A stretch of DNA of 42,322 nt from a virus. How positions within the stretch are numbered: the first letter of the stretch is position 1; every line of letters starts with the position of its first letter. This document shows, piece after piece, positions 3,283 through 40,668 of the stretch. Made by a program: the position numbers and the translations under genes. The notes beneath the pieces were generated by a model, which did no database searches, was not told where the DNA came from, and saw only the letters and a program-made list of their open reading frames with translations. Location: the UHGV virus genome UHGV-0136707. One strand, given 5' to 3'.

Positions 3283-3309
3283 TTGACAATTGCTCTAATA
3301 AATTATAGT
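3283..3309 (+). promoter_or_regulatory. promoter overlapped by a C1 operator (immC, drives coi/c1 direction)
   Basis: -35 TTGACA (3283-3288), operator ATTGCTCTAATAAATTA (3289-3305, 16/17), -10 TATAGT (3304-3309). Confidence 0.65.
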
Positions 3310-3543
3310 TTTGCCGCCGTTTCGTAATACGACTTTGGATTCACTATTTAATGTGTCTTCAGCGTTGTAGAGCGGCTCAGAAGGAAATGAGCAAACAGGG
3401 AAACCTTATACAACGGCATTACAGCTATGCATTGCTCATCTTACACACAGCGCAATGTTGTTAGATTACCCCAGCATGGATCATGGGTGAAACAGTAGGT
3501 CAGAGCTTCAGGCTCTGTGTTGTCAATACAGTGAGGCATAATT

Positions 3544-3753
3544 ATGGCTTTCATTCCACCAACCATCGACGACGTTAGACATTGCTCTAACGCTTTATCT
3601 GTAGACCCCGCCGAAACCGACGCTGCCCGCGCCATTGCTGAACACTACTCAAAGATATCCAATCAGGAGTACCGCATCACCCAAGACGACCTGGATGATC
3701 TCACTGACACAATCGAATATCTCATGGCCACTAACCAGCCAGACTCACAATAA
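3544..3753 (+). CDS. coi: Coi, C1-inactivator protein
   Basis: 69-aa ORF immediately upstream of c1 on the same strand. Size and position match P1 coi. Operator-like sites flank it. Confidence 0.75.
   Translation: MAFIPPTIDDVRHCSNALSVDPAETDAARAIAEHYSKISNQEYRITQDDLDDLTDTIEYLMATNQPDSQ
3581..3597 (+). promoter_or_regulatory. weak C1-operator-like site inside coi
   Basis: 13/17 match (ATTGCTCTAACGCTTTA). Confidence 0.3.
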
Positions 3754-3769
3754 ATGCACTAATAAATCT
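3753..3769 (+). promoter_or_regulatory. C1-operator-like site between coi and c1
   Basis: 14/17 match (AATGCACTAATAAATCT), starting at the coi stop. Confidence 0.4.
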
Positions 3770-3863
3770 ATTATTTTCGTTGGATCCTTCTATAATGGTG
3801 GCCAACAACTCCCAGTGTAATCCGCTGTGAGTTGTTGGCCATGTCAATTCTGGAGGAGGATCA

Positions 3864-4715
3864 ATGATAAATTATGTCTACGGCGAACAACTGTACCAGG
3901 AGTTCGTCAGCTTCAGGGATCTCTTTCTAAAAAAAGCTGTTGCACGCGCCCAACACGTTGATGCCGCCAGCGACGGTCGTCCTGTACGCCCGGTTGTCGT
4001 TCTGCCGTTCAAAGAAACGGACAGCATTCAGGCTGAAATTGATAAATGGACTTTAATGGCGCGGGAACTGGAACAGTACCCAGACCTCAATATCCCAAAG
4101 ACTATTTTATATCCAGTGCCTAACATCCTTCGCGGTGTGCGTAAGGTTACAACTTATCAGACAGAAGCTGTGAACAGCGTCAACATGACCGCTGGCCGCA
4201 TTATTCATCTGATTGATAAGGACATTCGCATCCAGAAAAGCGCGGGGATCAATGAGCACAGTGCGAAATACATAGAGAACCTGGAAGCAACAAAAGAGCT
4301 AATGAAGCAGTACCCGGAGGATGAAAAATTCCGTATGCGTGTACACGGCTTTAGCGAAACAATGCTGCGCGTCCATTACATTTCCAGTAGCCCTAACTAC
4401 AATGATGGTAAATCAGTTAGTTACCATGTGCCGCTGTGTGGTGTGTTTATCTGCGATGAAACTCTCCGTGATGGAATCATCATCAACGGTGAATTCGAGA
4501 AAGCAAAATTTAGCCTTTATGACTCTATAGAACCGATCATCTGCGACCGCTGGCCGCAGGCAAAAATATATCGCCTGGCAGATATTGAAAATGTAAAAAA
4601 ACAAATTGCCATCACTCGCGAAGAGAAAAAGGTCAAATCAGCCGCATCAGTTACGCGCAGCCGTAAAACTAAGAAGGGGCAGCCAGTAAACGACAACCCC
4701 GAAAGCGCGCAATAG
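3864..4715 (+). CDS. c1: C1 repressor of lysogeny
   Basis: 283-aa ORF (MINYVYGEQLYQEFVSFRDLFLKKAV...). Length and N-terminus match my memory of P1 C1. Several ATTGCTCTAATAAATTT-like operators lie upstream. Confidence 0.93.
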   Translation: MINYVYGEQLYQEFVSFRDLFLKKAVARAQHVDAASDGRPVRPVVVLPFKETDSIQAEIDKWTLMARELEQYPDLNIPKTILYPVPNILRGVRKVTTYQTEAVNSVNMTAGRIIHLIDKDIRIQKSAGINEHSAKYIENLEATKELMKQYPEDEKFRMRVHGFSETMLRVHYISSSPNYNDGKSVSYHVPLCGVFICDETLRDGIIINGEFEKAKFSLYDSIEPIICDRWPQAKIYRLADIENVKKQIAITREEKKVKSAASVTRSRKTKKGQPVNDNPESAQ

Positions 4716-4739
4716 TTTCTATCCGGCATGGTCAATGAG

Positions 4740-6224
4740 TTATTCATTAAGCCATGCCAGAGCTTCATCAACCTGCGCTTCGTCTTCGACGCTAAGCACT
4801 TCATCCTGGGGAACATAATCAGCCAGCATAGCGAAACAATATGTATCCCAATGGTCTGGTGAGTGCAGGTTGAGTTTTTTCTTCATATCCTCCTTACTCA
4901 TCACCTTCCATTGACCTGCGGAGTTAATCCCTACAGGGATTTTCGACGCTTCCTCAATAGTTTCATTACCCTTATCCAGTCTCATACGACCAGATTTTAC
5001 GGCCTCTGCGGCTTGAACGTTGGCATAAGCACGTTTATCAAAGTACAGGCTCTTATCTTCACGGCTATGCATCTTTTTACCCCAGCGTATACGCTGTACG
5101 GTAATACCATAATACTCGTACATCAGATCCGCCGTTGCTTTACCCAGGCCATCGCCGTCTATCGCTATGGTGATATTTGGGAATCGCTCAGGATTACATT
5201 CTGCGAAAATTTTGGCGGCAAGCTGCGTTTCTGTAACGTCTGTGTATTCCAGCATTCGATAGTTGATTACACGGCGTTTATTTCGCTGGCCGGACACCAT
5301 CATGATATTGATAACGGACTTATCCCGTCCCGTACCACCAGCAACGTCCACACATGCAAGCCAGCCCCATCCTTTGGCAATCTTGACTTTCCGCCGCGTT
5401 GCACGTTCAACCTCATCACGTCCAAGAAGGAAGCCATCCTGTGATTTAGGGAATAGGCCGCGTACCTTAATCATGTACATAGGGTTATCACGCCCGCCGT
5501 ACTCCGCCAGCTTCATTTTGATAAATGCTGGCGTTACCAGCGGTGATTCCTCACTGTTAAGCGTGATCGCCGTATAAACGCCATCAGGGTTACCAGGACG
5601 CTTGGCCAGTTTATGGTGAGTATCGTAGAAATAGCCGCTTGGGCGTGTAGGCTGTGACAGCAATAAGATGCGGTTATCCTGTCCGGTAAGAGCACCGGTG
5701 ATGATACCGAAAGCTCTATCACTGACACCGGAGGCTTCATCGATAATATACAGAAGATGATCTGCGTGTTCACCTGCGAGAGCTTCTTCACTTCCCAGAC
5801 GAAAGCCCTTCGGTACTACAGTCCATACACCTTTACCAGTAACTTCATAAAAAGCGGTTTCTGTCAGAACAAAATAATCAGCAAGCCATGGAAAACGGCT
5901 GGTGGCCGTAGCCCAGTTTATCTTGATGTACTTGAATATACCGGTCATTACCTGCTGAATTTTGTTCGCAACGATAATGGCACGGGCACCGGGATACATG
6001 ATTATGAACAACATGATCATGATAGAAGTCATGTCTGATTTCCCGGTACCGTGACCAGACGAAACAGATGTCTTGCTACCCTGTTCCTGCACAGACTCAA
6101 TAATCAGATCCTGCTGCCAGGTAGGTGTTTTGCCGAACAAAACATCAGCGGCCGCAATCCAGTCATAACGATATAGCGCCACCAGCTCGCGCCAACGTGG
6201 ATCCGTTACGCAACTTCTGGCCAT
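4740..6224 (-). CDS. pacB: PacB, terminase large subunit
   Basis: 494-aa ORF coupled to pacA by a 1-nt overlap at 6224. Walker-A-like GHGTGKSD and a nuclease-like C-terminal half. Convergent with c1 as in P1. Confidence 0.9.
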
Positions 6225-33744: not shown

Positions 33745-33772
33745 ATTACACTAATAAATTTATTAGAGCAAT
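33745..33772. promoter_or_regulatory. bipartite overlapping C1 operator upstream of the tRNA-tci-ban operon
   Basis: Perfect 17/17 operator in reverse orientation (33756-33772) overlapping a 15/17 forward copy (33745-33761). Sits at the dmt stop, upstream of the tRNA/ban transcription unit; P1 ban is known to be C1-controlled. Confidence 0.7.
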
Positions 33773-36027: not shown

Positions 36028-36929
36028 TGCTTAGCCTCTCCACCAAGGGCATTTACCAGAGCATCAACCAGGCACGAAATTTCACTGGTCAACAGGAAGA
36101 AATCTGCGTCCAGTCGCTGCGCAACATCTTCACTATCAATATCAGAGTTCTGCTCAAGCAATTCATCCGCAAATTTGACGCTGGTAAGGCTGAAGTTATG
36201 GTCCAGTGTAAATTTAATGCGGTTCTGCCAGTCGAGTGCCAACTTAGTGACGAGCTTGCCAGCTTCCAGGTGTGTGGAAATTTCATCGCTTCCCAAATCC
36301 TGCTTTTTCACTCGGGCAATACCGCCATCCTCAAGCACTGCCTTAAGTTCTGCCGCATCCCCCATTTGAAATCCCTGTGGAGCACTACCATCACGTACCC
36401 AGTCGGTCAGCGTTAATTCAATGGGATTTTCAACACTCAGGGGAACAACAGGAAGAGAACCCAGAGACTTACGCATAAGCGCGAGCATATCCTCAGCCTG
36501 CCGCGCGCTGGCATTGATATAGATACGTTTAGTTGAACCGTCGTAGATCGCCTGGATAACAGAAAACTTTGAAAAAGCCCGTGGCAGAAGAGAATGCAGA
36601 ACTTCGTCTTTCAGGGAGTCCTTCTCTGTTTTCTTCAGTTTACGCGCTTGTTCTTGCTCAAGTTTTTCAATTTTTTCTTGAATAGCTCGCTGGATAACCG
36701 GCGGGGGAAGAATTTTTGTTTCGCGCTTTGCTTCAACAAGGATAAAACCATTTCCATGCATAGCGATAACTTCGGAATTATCACCAAATGGCGATACAAA
36801 ACCGAACTTGGCCATATCCTGACTACCGCATGGCGTGAAAAGGATCATTTTCTTTTTATCTTCTAAGTCGGTCAGATCCGCCTCACGAGAAAGTTTATAA
36901 ATAGTAATGTTTTTCCAGTGCTTAAACAT
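36024..36929 (-). CDS. hrdC: RdgC-like recombination-associated protein
   Basis: N-terminus [13 protein letters not shown] resembles RdgC. Start placed at the internal ATG (36929), 5 nt after the uhr stop; the track ORF extends to a TTG at 37043 in a frame overlapping uhr. Stop overlaps the dmt GTG start. Confidence 0.75.
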
Positions 36930-37278
36930 GTTGTAACCCTTGAATATCAACCACAGAAAGCTCGTCTTTGTAGAAAAAGGCCAGGTTGTGGCACCCCCTC
37001 GTTTGAGCGTATGAGCTGGGACCAATTTCGTTCTTCCAGACAAATGGCTTCAAATCCGTACGGCGAAGCATAAAAACGCGATTTGTTCCGCTCTGATTCC
37101 CAATGAGGCAAAAGCCTTCTTTCACCTTGATAGCCTGCAAGTTGTCGAGTTCACCGCTGGTTACACGGCTATCGAACTCCTTGCGGCTTATTAGCTCCAT
37201 CTGCATCTGACGACTCCAAACAAATGCCCATTGAAGGGCGATGGCTGAATGGTACCGAAAACACGACATAAAAAACAA
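36922..37278 (-). CDS. uhr: hypothetical protein upstream of hrdC
   Basis: 118-aa ORF (start may be internal). An operator-like 17-mer lies at its 5' end. Confidence 0.45.
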
Positions 37279-37294
37279 TATTTATTAGAGCAAT
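37278..37294 (-). promoter_or_regulatory. C1-operator-like site between uhr and the PAAR operon
   Basis: 16/17 match (ATATTTATTAGAGCAAT reverse) in the divergent region. Confidence 0.6.
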
Positions 37295-37375
37295 TTTATA
37301 ATAAGTAAACGCCATGCAGACCACAAACAACCTAAGTTAAAATAACGAAAATCAGAGCAAATCATTGGTGATAAC

Positions 37376-37660
37376 GTGGCAAGTATTGCAACAAAAGACA
37401 GCATTTGTTCGGGGCACGGAGGATTCCCATCCAGGCCTCCTGTAGAGAGTGAACCATTACTTAAAGTCAACGGAGTAGAAGTGTTAGTTGATGGTAAGCA
37501 ATATGCACAGCATACCGATGGAAACAGTACGCACGGTGGGCAAGCTATATCAACCAGGGCATGGTTTACCGTCAATGGTAAAGGGGTCGTATGCGTTGGT
37601 GACCCTGTTTCATGCGGCTCTACCGTAGCATCAGGAGACGGCCTAGTTCAGGTAAGTTAG
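37376..37660 (+). CDS. upfC: PAAR-like spike-tip protein
   Basis: 94-aa ORF starting with GTG. Gly/Val-rich beta-repeat pattern with conserved Cys/His (CSGHGG...THGG...CVGDPVSCGSTVASGDG) typical of PAAR domains. Symbol from remembered P1 order. Confidence 0.5.
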   Translation: MASIATKDSICSGHGGFPSRPPVESEPLLKVNGVEVLVDGKQYAQHTDGNSTHGGQAISTRAWFTVNGKGVVCVGDPVSCGSTVASGDGLVQVS

Positions 37661-37668
37661 GAGATATC

Positions 37669-38457
37669 ATGCTGGAAAAAGACTACCAGTTATCCGCATA
37701 TAAAAAATTGGCCGCCGCCGGTGGGATGAAAACACCTGGTGCCATAACATCGGCACGAAACAGTGCTAACACGGCAAAACAGCTTGCAGAAGAATTGACC
37801 GGATTAATTTTGGATACAATTGTCTATCCCGACACTATTACCAGCTATGTTTCGACGATCAGAACAACCATAACCGGCTTAACGAACATTGGAGAACTGG
37901 CAACTAAGCACGCGGACCTGTTGGCTGGTTATGCAGATCTGTCAATGCTGCTTCAACTCGATATTGGTTGGGATGTTTACTGCCGTGCTAATGAGCGAGA
38001 AGTATCAGAACTGCCGATCTCTATTGCCATTGGTGATGTGAATATTACTAAATCGCTTGAGGACGCTGTTAACGCGCTTAATACATCAAGTTTAGTCGCT
38101 GCTATGGGGGAGATTAACCAGACCCTTAACACTGGCTCAGGAAGCTCGTCAGACTCTGGTTCAGGCGGCGGAACTGCCACTCCCCCACCAGCACTAACAG
38201 AAGAACAAATTGAATCTCTGAAAGTAGCAACTGAACAGTTTGGGGTTGTTTTCAACCGGACAACAGCGCCCACAACTGCGTTACAACAGCAGTATGAACG
38301 AGCGAATGAAAGCGCCAACGTAGCCATAACTGCTTATAACCATGCTATCGGTACTGCGCTTGCGGAAGCATCAGCAAATAAGGCCAGCACAGCCAGCGCA
38401 GTCGCCGCTTTGGTTCCTGATTCTGTTCTTGATGAATTAAACAAAGCGGCACAGTAA
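37669..38457 (+). CDS. upfB: hypothetical protein with Ser/Gly-rich linker
   Basis: Start at ATG 37669 with a GGAGAT Shine-Dalgarno (the track ORF starts earlier and overlaps the PAAR gene). Central GSGSSSDSGSGGG linker. Confidence 0.5.
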   Translation: MLEKDYQLSAYKKLAAAGGMKTPGAITSARNSANTAKQLAEELTGLILDTIVYPDTITSYVSTIRTTITGLTNIGELATKHADLLAGYADLSMLLQLDIGWDVYCRANEREVSELPISIAIGDVNITKSLEDAVNALNTSSLVAAMGEINQTLNTGSGSSSDSGSGGGTATPPPALTEEQIESLKVATEQFGVVFNRTTAPTTALQQQYERANESANVAITAYNHAIGTALAEASANKASTASAVAALVPDSVLDELNKAAQ

Positions 38458-38496
38458 CAAAGGACTTCATTGATAATTTTTCTTCAGGAGGAAGAC

Positions 38497-38919
38497 ATGT
38501 CATTCTTTTCTACGTTAAAAACAGCTTTGTCTTTGAAGGAGAAACTTGCTGCTACTGGTGTTCTTGTTCTGATTTGCGCACTTGTTGGTGCTGGGTTTGC
38601 ATGGGAACGTCATCAGCTAAAGCAAGCCATGGAGAAAATTGGCAGTCTTGATCAGGCTGTTAAGGAACGTGATAAGTCCATAATGGATCTTAACCAGACC
38701 ATTGAGACGATGAACAAAGCAGAGCAACATTTTCACAGCCAGGAAGTGAAAAATGAATCAGAACAAGCCAAGTATGCTGACAGGCAAATGGAACGAAAAG
38801 CAGAAGTTCAGAAACAACTGGTTGCGGCGGGTAATGTTCGCCAGCGCATTCCTGCTGACACTCAGCGGTTGCTCCGGGAGTCGATCAGCGAATTTAACGC
38901 CGACGCCGACAAAGGTTAA
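38497..38919 (+). CDS. ppfA: i-spanin-like protein (N-terminal TM plus periplasmic coiled coil)
   Basis: Start at ATG 38497 with an AGGAGGAAG Shine-Dalgarno. Single N-terminal TM segment (LAATGVLVLICALVGAGFAW) then a coiled-coil-prone region. Confidence 0.5.
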   Translation: MSFFSTLKTALSLKEKLAATGVLVLICALVGAGFAWERHQLKQAMEKIGSLDQAVKERDKSIMDLNQTIETMNKAEQHFHSQEVKNESEQAKYADRQMERKAEVQKQLVAAGNVRQRIPADTQRLLRESISEFNADADKG

Positions 38920-39085
38920 CCACCCTGCCCCCAAAAGTGCGTTTATGTGCAGGATGCCAGAGTTTAGCAGTGAATATTTTGATGATCTGCCAGCGTATAT
39001 CCTCGATACAGAAACGATGCTGATGGGGATTAACAGGAAGAATCGCAACGTTAATGATTACAACCGCGCTATCAGCGGTAACTAA
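38753..39085 (+). CDS. mlp: lipoprotein (o-spanin-like), overlapping ppfA in another frame
   Basis: Lipobox LTLSGC preceded by a hydrophobic stretch. The ORF starts inside ppfA and runs 166 nt past its stop. True start is uncertain (ATG at 38753, 38774 or 38834). Confidence 0.5.
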   Translation: MNQNKPSMLTGKWNEKQKFRNNWLRRVMFASAFLLTLSGCSGSRSANLTPTPTKVNHPAPKSAFMCRMPEFSSEYFDDLPAYILDTETMLMGINRKNRNVNDYNRAISGN

Positions 39086-39096
39086 AAGGGATTTTT

Positions 39097-39489
39097 ATGT
39101 CTGATAAAGTAACAGTAAAGCAAACTATCAACAAAGCGACTTCAATCTACAAAATTGAGCACATCACTGTTGGCAAGCCAGGATCTGAACAATACCGTCA
39201 TGCTTTCGAGCTTGCCGATCAGCTTGGTTTAAAACACCCGGATTGCATCGAGCATGTATTTCCGATCTATGCTGATGAGCAATGTACTCATGTTCTTACC
39301 GAAGAGGATTTTTTCAGTACTGAAGAACGAGAAGGCGTTGATCGCTGCATTGGTGTGATTTGCTCTTCAGTGAGTTATGAGTTATTCCCTAATGTCCATG
39401 AAAATGGTGGTATTGGATACCAATTCCTGTACGAAGGCGATGAGCTTAAATGTTATGAACATGGCCTTCTCATCGAAAGCGTAGAATAA
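39097..39489 (+). CDS. upfA: hypothetical protein
   Basis: 130-aa ORF, last gene of the operon, followed by an intrinsic terminator and then oriR. Confidence 0.5.
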   Translation: MSDKVTVKQTINKATSIYKIEHITVGKPGSEQYRHAFELADQLGLKHPDCIEHVFPIYADEQCTHVLTEEDFFSTEEREGVDRCIGVICSSVSYELFPNVHENGGIGYQFLYEGDELKCYEHGLLIESVE

Positions 39490-39503
39490 TACGGCTTCCT
39501 TCC

Positions 39504-39527
39504 AACCGGCTTTGTTGGCCGGTTTTT
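39504..39527 (+). terminator. intrinsic terminator after the upfA operon
   Basis: AACCGGC-loop-GCCGGTT followed by a T-run, 15 bp after the upfA stop. Confidence 0.6.
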
Positions 39528-39530
39528 CAC

Positions 39531-39610
39531 TTATCCACATTATCCACTGGATAGATCCAATAATTAGGTCCATACAGATCCCAATTAGATCCATATAGAT
39601 CCCTGATCGT
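39531..39610. other. oriR: oriR replication origin core: DnaA boxes and GATC heptamer repeats
   Basis: Tandem DnaA boxes TTATCCACA and TTATCCACT (39531-39548) followed by five GATC sites within about 55 bp (39554-39608). A third DnaA-like box CTATCCACA lies at 39781-39789. Confidence 0.8.
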
Positions 39611-39647
39611 TGCAGGCCGCGCCACGTCTGGCTTAGAAGTGTATCAC

Positions 39648-39750
39648 GATGTGTGCTGGAGGGAAAACGATGTGTGCTGGAGGGATAAAAATGTGTGCTG
39701 ACGGGTTGCTAATGTGTGCTGGCGGGATATAGGATGTGTGCTGACGGGAA
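39648..39750 (+). repeat. incC: incC: five direct 19-bp RepA iterons
   Basis: GATGTGTGCTGGAGGGAAA-like copies starting at 39648, 39669, 39690, 39711 and 39732 (21-bp periodicity), directly upstream of repA. Confidence 0.9.
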
Positions 39751-39807
39751 AGCCTGGGTAGTTATCACCGCTTATAAAAACTATCCACATAATTCGGAAA
39801 AAGTAAT

Positions 39808-40668
39808 ATGAATCAATCTTTTATCTCCGATATTCTTTACGCAGACATTGAAAGTAAGGCAAAAGAATTAACAGTTAATTCAAACAACACTGTGCAGCCT
39901 GTAGCGTTGATGCGCTTGGGGGTATTCGTGCCGAAGCCATCAAAGAGCAAAGGAGAAAGTAAAGAGATTGATGCCACCAAAGCGTTTTCCCAGCTGGAGA
40001 TAGCTAAAGCAGAAGGTTACGATGACATTAAAATCACCGGTCCTCGACTCGATATGGATACTGATTTCAAAACGTGGATCGGTGTTATCTACGCGTTCAG
40101 CAAATACGGCTTGTCCTCAAACACCATCCAGTTATCGTTTCAGGAATTCGCTAAAGCCTGCGGTTTCCCCTCAAAACGTCTGGATGCGAAACTGCGTTTA
40201 ACCATTCATGAATCACTTGGCCGCTTGCGTAACAAGGGTATCGCTTTTAAGCGTGGTAAAGATGCTAAAGGTGGCTACCAGACTGGTCTGTTGAAGGTCG
40301 GACGTTTCGATGCTGACCTCGATCTGATCGAGCTGGAAGCCGACTCGAAGCTGTGGGAGCTGTTCCAGCTTGATTATCGCGTCCTGTTGCAGCACCACGC
40401 CTTGCGTGCCCTTCCGAAGAAAGAAGCTGCACAAGCCATTTACACTTTTATCGAAAGCCTTCCGCAGAATCCGTTGCCGCTATCGTTCGCGCGAATCCGT
40501 GAGCGCCTGGCTTTGCAGTCAGCTGTTGGCGAGCAAAACCGTATCATTAAGAAAGCGATAGAACAGCTTAAAACAATCGGCTATCTCGACTGTTCAATTG
40601 AGAAGAAAGGCCGGGAAAGTTTTGTAATCGTCCATTCTCGCAATCCAAAGCTGAAACTCCCCGAATAA
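39808..40668 (+). CDS. repA: RepA, iteron-binding plasmid replication initiator
   Basis: 286-aa ORF flanked upstream by five 19-bp iterons and downstream by nine; the classic P1 R-replicon arrangement. Confidence 0.92.
   Translation: MNQSFISDILYADIESKAKELTVNSNNTVQPVALMRLGVFVPKPSKSKGESKEIDATKAFSQLEIAKAEGYDDIKITGPRLDMDTDFKTWIGVIYAFSKYGLSSNTIQLSFQEFAKACGFPSKRLDAKLRLTIHESLGRLRNKGIAFKRGKDAKGGYQTGLLKVGRFDADLDLIELEADSKLWELFQLDYRVLLQHHALRALPKKEAAQAIYTFIESLPQNPLPLSFARIRERLALQSAVGEQNRIIKKAIEQLKTIGYLDCSIEKKGRESFVIVHSRNPKLKLPE

Follow-up and report, generated by a model that had tools for sequence, protein, structure and literature searches.

The five-gene unit upfC-upfB-ppfA-mlp-upfA of a P1-like phage-plasmid very probably joins tail-tip entry and spanin exit functions, both of which act at the cell envelope. 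The unit lies in the window, the whole stretch of 42,322 nucleotides that was analysed (UHGV virus genome UHGV-0136707), together with a spike gene, an operator and a terminator:

27907..28539, plus strand: gene 5 homologue, a 210-aa ORF named from the P1 annotation; trimeric beta-helical spike capped by UpfC
37278..37294, minus strand: C1 repressor operator, homologue of P1 Odmt/Op68; the 17-mer ATTGCTCTAATAAATAT matches ATTGCTCTAATAAATTT at 16/17 positions
37297..37302, plus strand: TATAAT hexamer, tentative candidate for the -10 of upfC, 2 nt past the operator
37376..37660, plus strand: upfC, GTG start, 94 aa; PAAR/T4 gp5.4-type tip of the central tail spike
37669..38457, plus strand: upfB, 262 aa, ATG behind AGGAG; the P1 annotation has 37612 and 281 aa
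38497..38919, plus strand: ppfA, 140 aa; predicted i-spanin with N-terminal TM segment 17-35
38753..39085, plus strand: mlp, 110 aa, +1 frame; predicted o-spanin, lipoprotein precursor
39097..39489, plus strand: upfA, 130 aa; accessory, mixed alpha/beta predicted fold
39504..39524, plus strand: intrinsic terminator, a stem of 8 bp, 5 of them GC, and then TTTTTCACTT

Sequence comparison identifies the window as a P1-like phage-plasmid and the five plus-strand ORFs as upfC, upfB, ppfA, mlp and upfA, the names that an earlier sequence-only reading of this DNA had given and that match the P1 annotation. Nucleotide identity to P1 across the five-gene stretch is 95.9%, and positions 20000-42322 are collinear, in reverse orientation, with P1 60117-82243. 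Gene content and order are identical to those of the P1/P7 cluster (NC_005856 62950-65063), which likewise lies between oriR/repA and Odmt/uhr. The proteins differ from their P1 counterparts by two (UpfC), one (PpfA), two (Mlp) and six (UpfA) amino-acid changes, compared with 26 in UpfB. The upfC-upfB segment has a pS of ∼0.18 against P1, far above that of uhr (0.017) and ppfA (0.033), and because of this excess divergence the sequence points to replacement of the tail-tip pair by recombination.

The same reading took the five genes to be annotated as unknown, which no longer holds, as RefSeq already names a PAAR motif and an Rz-like spanin. UpfC and UpfB are assigned in Gonzales 2022 and in the 2026 cryo-EM paper (PMC12810830), and the cluster is already described in the literature in all respects save the role of UpfA. 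Listings of ppfA/mlp as the spanin of P1 go back to 2007/2018.

The genes are closely spaced, with intergenic gaps of 8 nt between upfC and upfB (taking upfB from 37669), 39 nt between upfB and ppfA, and 11 nt between mlp and upfA. The terminator lies directly 3' of upfA, ahead of oriR, and is the sole plus-strand terminator-like site in the unit. Since the gaps are short and the terminator is single, the five genes are probably co-transcribed as one unit that ends before oriR.

The C1 operator consensus is a 17-bp asymmetric site, and a scan of the window that allowed up to 3 mismatches returned 12 operator-like sites against 0.2 expected by chance. The claim that the operon sits behind a 16/17 operator-like site holds as far as the site is concerned, but the P1 annotation assigns the operator at the equivalent position, Odmt/Op68, to the divergent dmt operon, where it overlaps the -35 of Pdmt (minus strand, uhr-hrdC-dmt). 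It is possible, although we lean against it, that the operator gates a plus-strand upfC promoter as well as Pdmt, in which case the genes would be C1-repressed and sigma-70-dependent rather than Lpa-dependent late genes. The upstream neighbours are all on the opposite strand, so the promoter must be inside the 169-nt intergenic region, where a perfect TATAAT follows the operator; the hexamer at this position is TGCAAT in P1 and TATGAT in JK004. The Lpa -22 box, defined from four annotated P1 late promoters as a 9-bp inverted repeat resembling AAGTNACTT followed by a -10 hexamer, is absent upstream of upfC in the window, P1 and JK004 at up to 2 mismatches, and the same scan does recover the homologue of LPpac at another place in the window. 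C1 operators (O26, OpmgR and OpmgT) are present in several further morphogenetic operons of P1. Against C1 gating of upfC, the P1 annotation gives the operator to Pdmt alone and lists no upfC promoter, and a consensus sigma-70 scan upstream of upfC called nothing, with no acceptable -35 or extended -10 near the TATAAT. In L010, a distant lineage, the PAAR gene has genes of its own strand ahead of it and no such intergenic region, and no transcript data for an upfC promoter were found.

PpfA and Mlp are predicted from sequence to be an overlapped two-component spanin, the outer-membrane breaker of P1 at lysis. PpfA has a single hydrophobic segment, which covers residues 17-35 (Kyte-Doolittle 2.35), and its periplasmic part consists of 61% helix-favouring residues with 1 Pro. 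A 3.5-residue hydrophobic periodicity is strong at residues 37-80 (z = 6.0) and lower at residues 81-140 (z = 2.5), in keeping with the N-terminal TM segment and coiled coil ascribed to this protein beforehand. A C-terminal motif, P-x-D-x-x-R...I-x-x-F-N-A, is conserved in an alignment of four lineages. Mlp has the lipobox L-S-G-C with Cys40 as the predicted lipidation site and Ser, not Asp, at +2; its n-region is unusually long at 27 aa, and the mature protein of 71 aa contains 6 Pro. The lipobox, Ser+2 and a second cysteine (Cys66) are invariant in the four lineages.

The mlp gene starts 256 nt inside ppfA and overlaps it by 167 nt in the +1 frame, so the lipoprotein ORF beginning inside the previous gene in another frame was correctly read. 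Both frames of the overlap are conserved against JK004, with a nucleotide identity of 0.754 in the overlap versus 0.621 and 0.699 in the single-coding parts. Of the codon changes in mlp outside the overlap, 19 are synonymous and 14 non-synonymous. The overlapped pair is also kept in L004, L010 and L011.

PHROG profiles relate both proteins to spanins. PpfA matches PHROG 89, an Rz-like spanin family, at E 1.2e-25, and Mlp matches the Rz-like spanin families PHROG 30284 and 456 at E 3e-77 and E 4e-5. The program hhalign shows homology between the Mlp family and P2 LysC (94.7%, E 5.7e-8), the alignment running from the lipobox Cys to a conserved C-x-M-P motif, while the PpfA profile gives no significant match to P2 LysB (5.9%), nor does the similarity reach significance outside the TM region. 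The NCBIfam equivalog cut-offs for the P2 proteins are unreached, at 14.4 bits for Mlp against P2_Rz1 (cut-off 27) and a weak 19 bits for PpfA against LysB TIGR03495 (cut-off 92.75). These weak matches agree with one another in pointing to the P2 pair, PpfA to LysB and Mlp to LysC. Neither protein matches any spanin family of Pfam, the lambda Rz and Rz1 families included, at E up to 1. The similarity to PAAR and spanin profiles proposed as a check was recovered through PHROG, whereas Pfam gave nothing for Rz/Rz1 and a PAAR score just below its cut-off. The topology, lipobox, overlap, PHROG matches and LysC homology, along with Table S1 of Kongari 2018, where P1 ppfA/mlp is entered as a two-component spanin of the overlapped type (SpaninDB row P1 gp064), uphold the i-spanin/o-spanin (Rz/Rz1) architecture first proposed for the pair.

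Comparison with well-studied pairs reveals both shared and divergent features. In P2 LysB/LysC, as in PpfA/Mlp, the o-spanin gene starts in the +1 frame within the i-spanin gene and extends beyond its end, with an overlap of 146 nt in P2 and 167 nt here. Lambda Rz/Rz1 and PpfA/Mlp both combine a type-II inner-membrane coiled-coil protein with a small, Pro-containing outer-membrane lipoprotein in the +1 frame; the lambda genes, however, are embedded and ppfA/mlp overlapped. Mature Mlp is longer than mature lambda Rz1, which has 40 aa. Most two-component spanins carry cysteines in the periplasm through which intermolecular disulfides can form. The sole Cys of PpfA falls in the TM segment, leaving its periplasmic domain with none, unlike that of the lambda i-spanin Rz; the L010 i-spanin does have a periplasmic Cys. 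Linkage to holin and endolysin genes is usual for spanins but, as we read the class, not required. The P2 pair stands at the end of the holin-endolysin cassette, whereas PpfA/Mlp lies outside the lysis cassette, behind the tail-tip genes, the P1 lysis genes being elsewhere. The literature names ppfA/mlp as the spanin of P1 and puts the two genes in an operon that has no linkage to lyz and lydA/lydB (PMC9025707), and from this and the collinearity with P1 we infer that endolysin and holin genes are absent from the window.

This unusual position, next to a plasmid replicon, is the first argument for an envelope pair with a role other than lysis, in prophage-expressed superinfection exclusion, in lysogenic conversion or linked to the tail tip, a reading we regard as distinctly improbable. 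It would also accord with the missing periplasmic Cys, with the sigma-70 promoters P1ppfA (unchanged in the window) and P2ppfA that the P1 annotation predicts in the 3' end of upfB, with the linkage to PAAR and UpfB genes that distant lineages keep, and with the PpfA homologues found, all of them in P1-like elements and hence none in a canonical lysis cassette. CRISPRi knock-down of ppfA or mlp in P1 causes no plaque defect, and both genes were scored nonessential. However, spanin mutants usually have no plaque defect under standard conditions, and shaken cultures can do without spanins (PMC9025707). The homologue of Mlp, P2 LysC, belongs to a holin-endolysin cassette, the PHROG 89 match is strong, the pair has the spanin features that can be tested by sequence, and Kongari 2018 gives it as the spanin of P1. 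The spanin assignment is thus preferred over a non-lysis role.

Dispensability for plaque formation extends to all five genes, deletion or knock-down of UpfC and UpfB in P1 likewise causing no plaque defect (PMC9024508, CRISPRi). Such an outcome is expected for spanins and gp5.4-type tips in laboratory conditions. Of the lysis or virion phenotype by which the sequence-only reading wished to be judged, a virion location has been demonstrated, whereas the knock-outs and knock-downs are without plaque defect.

That location concerns the first two genes. UpfC matches the structures of T4 gp5.4 (5iv5 and 4ku0, E 6.5e-8 and 9e-8), the T6SS PAAR protein 4jiv_D (E 2.9e-4) and, over its full length, PHROG 281 'PAAR motif' (E 2.2e-30); the Pfam family PAAR_motif (PF05488) scores 26.5 bits, slightly below its 27-bit cut-off. 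In HMMER alignments, His14, His46, His53 and Cys80 align with the conserved His/His/His/Cys of gp5.4 and 4jiv_D. Such a conserved quartet near the PAAR apex was reportedly recognized as a metal site by Shneider in 2013. Like the T4 gp5.4 and T6SS PAAR proteins (4KU0, 5IV5, 4JIV), UpfC is a single domain of ∼95 aa with a D-P-[VI]-S-C-G motif that caps a trimeric beta-helical spike, although the sequence similarity is distant (E ∼1e-7). HHpred had earlier matched UpfC to gp5.4 (PMC9024508), and cryo-EM of P1 shows one UpfC capping the trimeric gp5 spike (PMC12810830). The protein of the window is identical at 92/94 residues to the P1 'UpfC' of PDB 9vyi chain A (E 2.5e-60). These data substantiate the proposal of a 94-aa PAAR-like protein. 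Its gene is 8.8 kb downstream of the gene 5 homologue, close to the 9 kb first estimated from the spike-like gene at 27907, while for the T4 gp5.4 and T6SS PAAR proteins the tip gene is near the spike gene. T4 gp5 has a lysozyme domain that P1 gp5 does not.

A 'moron' or T6SS-type PAAR protein working inside the host and outside the virion is scarcely credible: the category label of PHROG 281 ('moron, auxiliary metabolic gene and host takeover'), the best NCBIfam match (T6SS_PAAR_dom) and the failure of virion mass spectrometry to detect UpfC (PMC9024508) might suggest one, but that match, at 36 bits, is below its cut-off of 124, the protein is only 94 aa long and lacks an effector extension, its presence in one copy per virion accounts for its escape from mass spectrometry (PMC9024508), and the solved structure, in which UpfC is modelled into the P1 baseplate as seen by cryo-EM (PDB 9vyi_A; PMC12810830), rules such a role out.

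The start of upfB is most likely the ATG at 37669, judging from the sequence context and the homologues. An AGGAG Shine-Dalgarno lies 6 nt ahead of it, the PHROG 1559 alignment begins at its Met, full-length UpfB homologues have 255-262 aa, and upfB of JK004 begins past the upfC stop. The protein expected beforehand, of 263 aa with a Ser/Gly linker, is correct as to the linker (NTGSGSSSDSGSGGG) and one residue too long. The AF2 model of UpfB (pLDDT 82) has helices throughout, with residues 158-169 disordered. Cryo-EM of P1 locates UpfB at the tail tip as a 'tripod', a component absent from T4 (PMC12810830). UpfB homologues are confined to P1-like contigs of ∼90-100 kb.

Distant P1-like lineages, in which UpfB identity falls to as little as 44%, still carry the module of PAAR, tripod and spanin genes. 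Neither UpfA nor the replicon-adjacent position is conserved in these lineages, and the conservation of the module without them is the addition of the present analysis to what was described. The ORF at 39097-39489 is confirmed as the 130-aa hypothetical protein reported earlier; its family is small, and its predicted structure is confident and has no known structural neighbour. UpfA is a nonessential accessory gene, probably added to the module on the branch that leads to P1. A coupling, functional or regulatory, between the devices for crossing membranes at entry and exit, for example through a shared C1-gated, Lpa-independent promoter, with UpfA as a new envelope-related or anti-defence factor, is an unlikely explanation of the linkage.

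In the proposed model, UpfC is a cone, a single PAAR/gp5.4-type domain present in one copy on the blunt end of the gp5 beta-helix, which it sharpens. The all-helical UpfB forms trimers, the 'tripod', attached to the spike tip on the entry side. At the end of the cycle, PpfA would act as a type-II inner-membrane i-spanin with a coiled-coil periplasmic domain and Mlp, from the +1 frame, as a small outer-membrane lipoprotein o-spanin. If the analogy to lambda Rz/Rz1 and P2 LysB/LysC holds, their C-terminal regions would bind each other and span the periplasm. Once the SAR-endolysin Lyz removes the peptidoglycan, the pair would bring about fusion of the inner membrane with the outer, the last step of lysis.

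The operon mixes virion and lysis genes, and its spanin pair is unusual in being away from the lysis genes and in having an i-spanin without periplasmic Cys. Escherichia coli genetics relies heavily on P1, and resistance genes are spread by P1-like phage-plasmids, for which reasons clean functional assignments are useful for the annotation of these elements.

The segment at 37000-39800 is 95.9% identical to Escherichia phage P1 (NC_005856, 62639-65439, reverse strand) and 95-98% identical to P7 and other P1-like phage-plasmids, with collinearity extending from 20000 to 42322 of the window (P1 60117-82243). The stretch from the C1-repressor operator Odmt to oriR is annotated in both P1 and P7 with the same five plus-strand genes, and the names given in the sequence-only reading (upfC, upfB, ppfA, mlp, and upfA) are therefore correct. 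All five open reading frames lie where that reading placed them:

27907-28539: homologue of spike gene 5, 8.8 kb upstream
37278-37294, minus strand: C1 operator, reads ATTGCTCTAATAAATAT, 16/17 match
37297-37302, plus strand: perfect TATAAT, 2 nt past the C1 operator
37376-37660, plus strand: upfC, GTG start, 94 aa
37612-38457, plus strand: upfB in its P1-annotated form, 281 aa
37669, plus strand: likelier ATG start of upfB, 262 aa
38497-38919, plus strand: ppfA, 140 aa
38753-39085, plus strand: mlp, 110 aa
39097-39489, plus strand: upfA, 130 aa
39504-39524, plus strand: terminator-like hairpin directly 3' of upfA

The gaps between the operon genes are 8, 39, and 11 nt, and a scan of the unit returned the hairpin as the sole plus-strand terminator-like site. 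The spike-like gene at 27907, described as about 9 kb from the PAAR-like gene, is the gene 5 homologue. An Rfam search of 36800-39900 gave zero matches. The region is nothing new in kind, consisting of a PAAR tip that is solved, a tripod that is described, and a spanin pair that is catalogued; the original observation is confirmed and its interpretation supported, except for the regulatory detail.

Identification of the 94-aa protein UpfC as PAAR-like is supported by matches to profiles and structures. UpfC matches PHROG 281, 'PAAR motif', with an E-value of 2e-30, scores 26.5 bits against the Pfam PAAR_motif cut-off of 27, and is identical at 92 of 94 positions to PDB chain 9vyi_A, itself named UpfC. 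A PDB sequence search also revealed significant similarity to T4 gp5.4 (5iv5, 4ku0; E about 1e-7) and to the type VI secretion PAAR protein 4jiv_D (E 3e-4), with His14, His46, His53, and Cys80 of UpfC aligned to conserved positions in both. HHpred placed UpfC as a gp5.4 spike tip in the study of Gonzales et al. 2022, in which its deletion caused no plaque defect and mass spectrometry missed the protein (PMC9024508). By 2026 cryo-EM, a UpfC monomer caps the trimeric spike protein gp5 (PMC12810830).

The same cryo-EM study describes UpfB as three trimers that form a 'tripod' anchored at the tail tip; AlphaFold3 was used to model it into density of medium resolution (PMC12810830). AF2 predicts an all-helical fold for UpfB (pLDDT 82), in which the Ser/Gly linker, residues 158-169, is disordered, and homologues were found only on P1-like elements, Enterobacterales contigs of roughly 90-100 kb. 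The open reading frame is present as stated, and its length is most likely 262 aa. The P1 and RefSeq start, ATG 37612, overlaps upfC by 49 nt and is probably wrong. The likeliest start is ATG 37669, because an AGGAG Shine-Dalgarno sequence lies 6 nt before it, the PHROG 1559 profile starts at its Met, full-length homologues are 255-262 aa (262 aa in the largest homologue cluster), and upfB of Cronobacter phage JK004 begins past the upfC stop.

PpfA and Mlp show those features of a two-component spanin that can be tested from sequence, and are predicted to be the inner-membrane (i-spanin) and outer-membrane (o-spanin) partners. PpfA has a single strongly hydrophobic segment at residues 17-35, an N-terminal transmembrane (TM) anchor, followed by a periplasmic domain that lacks cysteine, is rich in helix formers, and shows a strong 3.5-residue hydrophobic periodicity (z = 6.0, residues 37-80). 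The mlp gene is read in the +1 frame from a start 256 nt inside ppfA, and the two genes share 167 nt. In Mlp, an L-S-G-C lipobox with Cys40 is followed by Ser at +2; the 71-aa mature protein contains six prolines and a second Cys. Among the PHROGs, PpfA matches the Rz-like spanin family phrog_89 (E 1.2e-25), and Mlp matches phrog_30284 and phrog_456, both Rz-like spanin families. The NCBIfam matches of PpfA to P2 LysB (E 1.3e-3) and of Mlp to P2 LysC (E 0.033) are weak and under the curated cut-offs, but agree in naming both members of a single reference pair. Neither protein matched the lambda Rz/Rz1 Pfam models. The anchor, lipobox, +1 overlap, and PHROG matches agree with the i-spanin/o-spanin architecture noted for the pair in the sequence-only reading. 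A second spanin-like pair, upl/plp, was considered and rejected, for lack of a TM segment in Upl and of a clear lipobox in Plp.

The ppfA/mlp pair lies outside any lysis cassette, and tblastn and profile searches for PpfA homologues in canonical lysis cassettes returned P1-like elements only. Spanin mutants usually have no plaque defect on plates. CRISPRi knock-down of ppfA/mlp leaves plaques unaffected. In a direct comparison with P2, LysC aligned to the four-lineage Mlp alignment with an hhalign probability of 94.7% (E 5.7e-8), from the lipobox Cys to a conserved C-x-M-P motif, whereas the match of LysB to PpfA was insignificant. The P2 lysB/lysC layout is likewise overlapped in the +1 frame.

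Both overlapping frames are real, as shown by comparison with JK004, in which PpfA is 59% identical, and by retention of the pair in two more distant P1-like lineages, with the lipobox, Ser +2, and second Cys invariant. Nucleotide identity to JK004 is 0.754 in the overlap, higher than in the mlp-only part (0.699) and the ppfA-only part (0.621). Within the overlap, PpfA is under the stronger constraint, with 12 synonymous and 19 non-synonymous codon changes in its frame compared with 3 synonymous and 27 non-synonymous ones for Mlp. Outside the overlap, mlp differs by 19 synonymous and 14 non-synonymous changes.

The Mlp n-region that precedes the signal sequence (38753-38833) is unusually long, with 27 aa and 7 Lys/Arg; its sequence is poorly conserved, yet the open reading frame is retained in all four lineages. 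JK004 Mlp has no internal Met ahead of the lipobox, so the far-upstream mlp start seems to be used. In the deposited JK004 record (MZ188976; L004 in our numbering), only a 44-aa gene_24 (4861-4995) is annotated at the mlp locus, and the 110-aa lipoprotein frame that begins within the ppfA homologue (4663-4995) was missed, a typical o-spanin annotation error according to Kongari 2018.

The pair is already filed in the literature as the predicted P1 spanin. In Table S1 of Kongari et al. 2018, P1 has the entry 'ovl', and gp064 is given as its overlapped i-spanin; Bednarek et al. 2022 attribute the prediction to Summer et al. 2007 (PMC9025707). Bednarek et al. name ppfA the o-spanin and mlp the i-spanin, the opposite of the sequence features, which place the TM anchor in PpfA and the lipobox in Mlp.

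The last gene, upfA, belongs to a small family: among 1.8 billion clusters, about 15 representatives, all divergent, were counted. Its AF2 model is confident (pLDDT 88.6, pTM 0.80). Searches of Pfam, NCBIfam, and PDB sequences gave no matches, and a structure search of BFVD found a family member only. Two large repeat proteins among the matches, P0080 and P0087, were judged spurious. In other phages, homologues are encoded by free-standing genes of accessory regions, such as phiKO2 gp63, whose neighbours encode an HNH endonuclease and soluble proteins, and P0082 of a metagenomic phage, flanked by KilA-N and RelB/ParE genes. Homologue contexts were uninformative, with three further ones on contigs of about 1 kb. 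A spanin linkage of UpfA in other phages is contradicted by the phiKO2 neighbours and by its absence from the module of the two distant P1-like lineages, L010 and L011. As UpfA is free-standing elsewhere, missing from these modules, and nonessential, it is regarded as an accessory addition to the module.

The regulatory reading fared differently. The 16/17 operator-like site is present ahead of the operon, one of 12 C1-operator-like 17-mers in the window compared with 0.2 expected by chance. An overlapping opposite-strand pair at 33745-33772 is the counterpart of the P1 bivalent Oban operator, with ten other sites across the window. The proposal that the site governs the plus-strand operon is not upheld by the P1 annotation, in which Odmt (formerly Op68) overlaps the -35 of Pdmt, the promoter of the divergent uhr-hrdC-dmt operon, and zero promoters are listed for upfC. 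The upstream neighbours are all on the other strand, so the operon promoter must fall in the 169-nt gap. A scan for an Lpa-type -22 box, derived from four annotated P1 late promoters, gave no match ahead of upfC in any of the window, P1, and JK004, but did pick up the LPpac homologue at another place in the window. A sigma-70 scan upstream of upfC called zero plus-strand promoters. The TATAAT at 37297-37302, which reads TGCAAT in P1 and TATGAT in JK004 and has no credible -35 upstream, is a possible -10 for an upfC promoter that is missing from the annotation. Such a divergent promoter sharing the C1 operator with Pdmt is plausible, though on balance less likely than not.

The four-gene order is retained in distant P1-like plasmids of Salmonella and others, in which UpfB is 44-48% identical (44-59% including JK004). 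The PAAR-UpfB-i-spanin-o-spanin module is located as follows:

L010, 6713-8407
L011, 6680-8428
L004 (JK004), 3295-4995

In the distant lineages, a PAAR protein of 94 aa, UpfB of about 260 aa, and an i-spanin of 149-151 aa are followed by an overlapped o-spanin of 109-112 aa. In place of upfA and the replicon, the major capsid gene (in L010) or unrelated genes come next. The L010 module also lies on the same strand as gp6/gp5-like and hrdC/dam-like genes. Compared with P1 (window 37376-38457 against L001 3377-4458), synonymous divergence (pS) is about 0.18-0.19 in the upfC-upfB segment, 0.017 in uhr, and 0.033 in ppfA, which suggests that the tail-tip pair was swapped as a unit by recombination in a mosaic region. 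UpfB differs from P1 by 26 amino-acid changes (pN/pS 0.24), suggesting that the exposed tripod protein evolves faster. With gene order retained at 44-48% UpfB identity and different flanks, the linkage of tail tip and predicted spanin is old, and the position next to the replicon is specific to the P1 branch.
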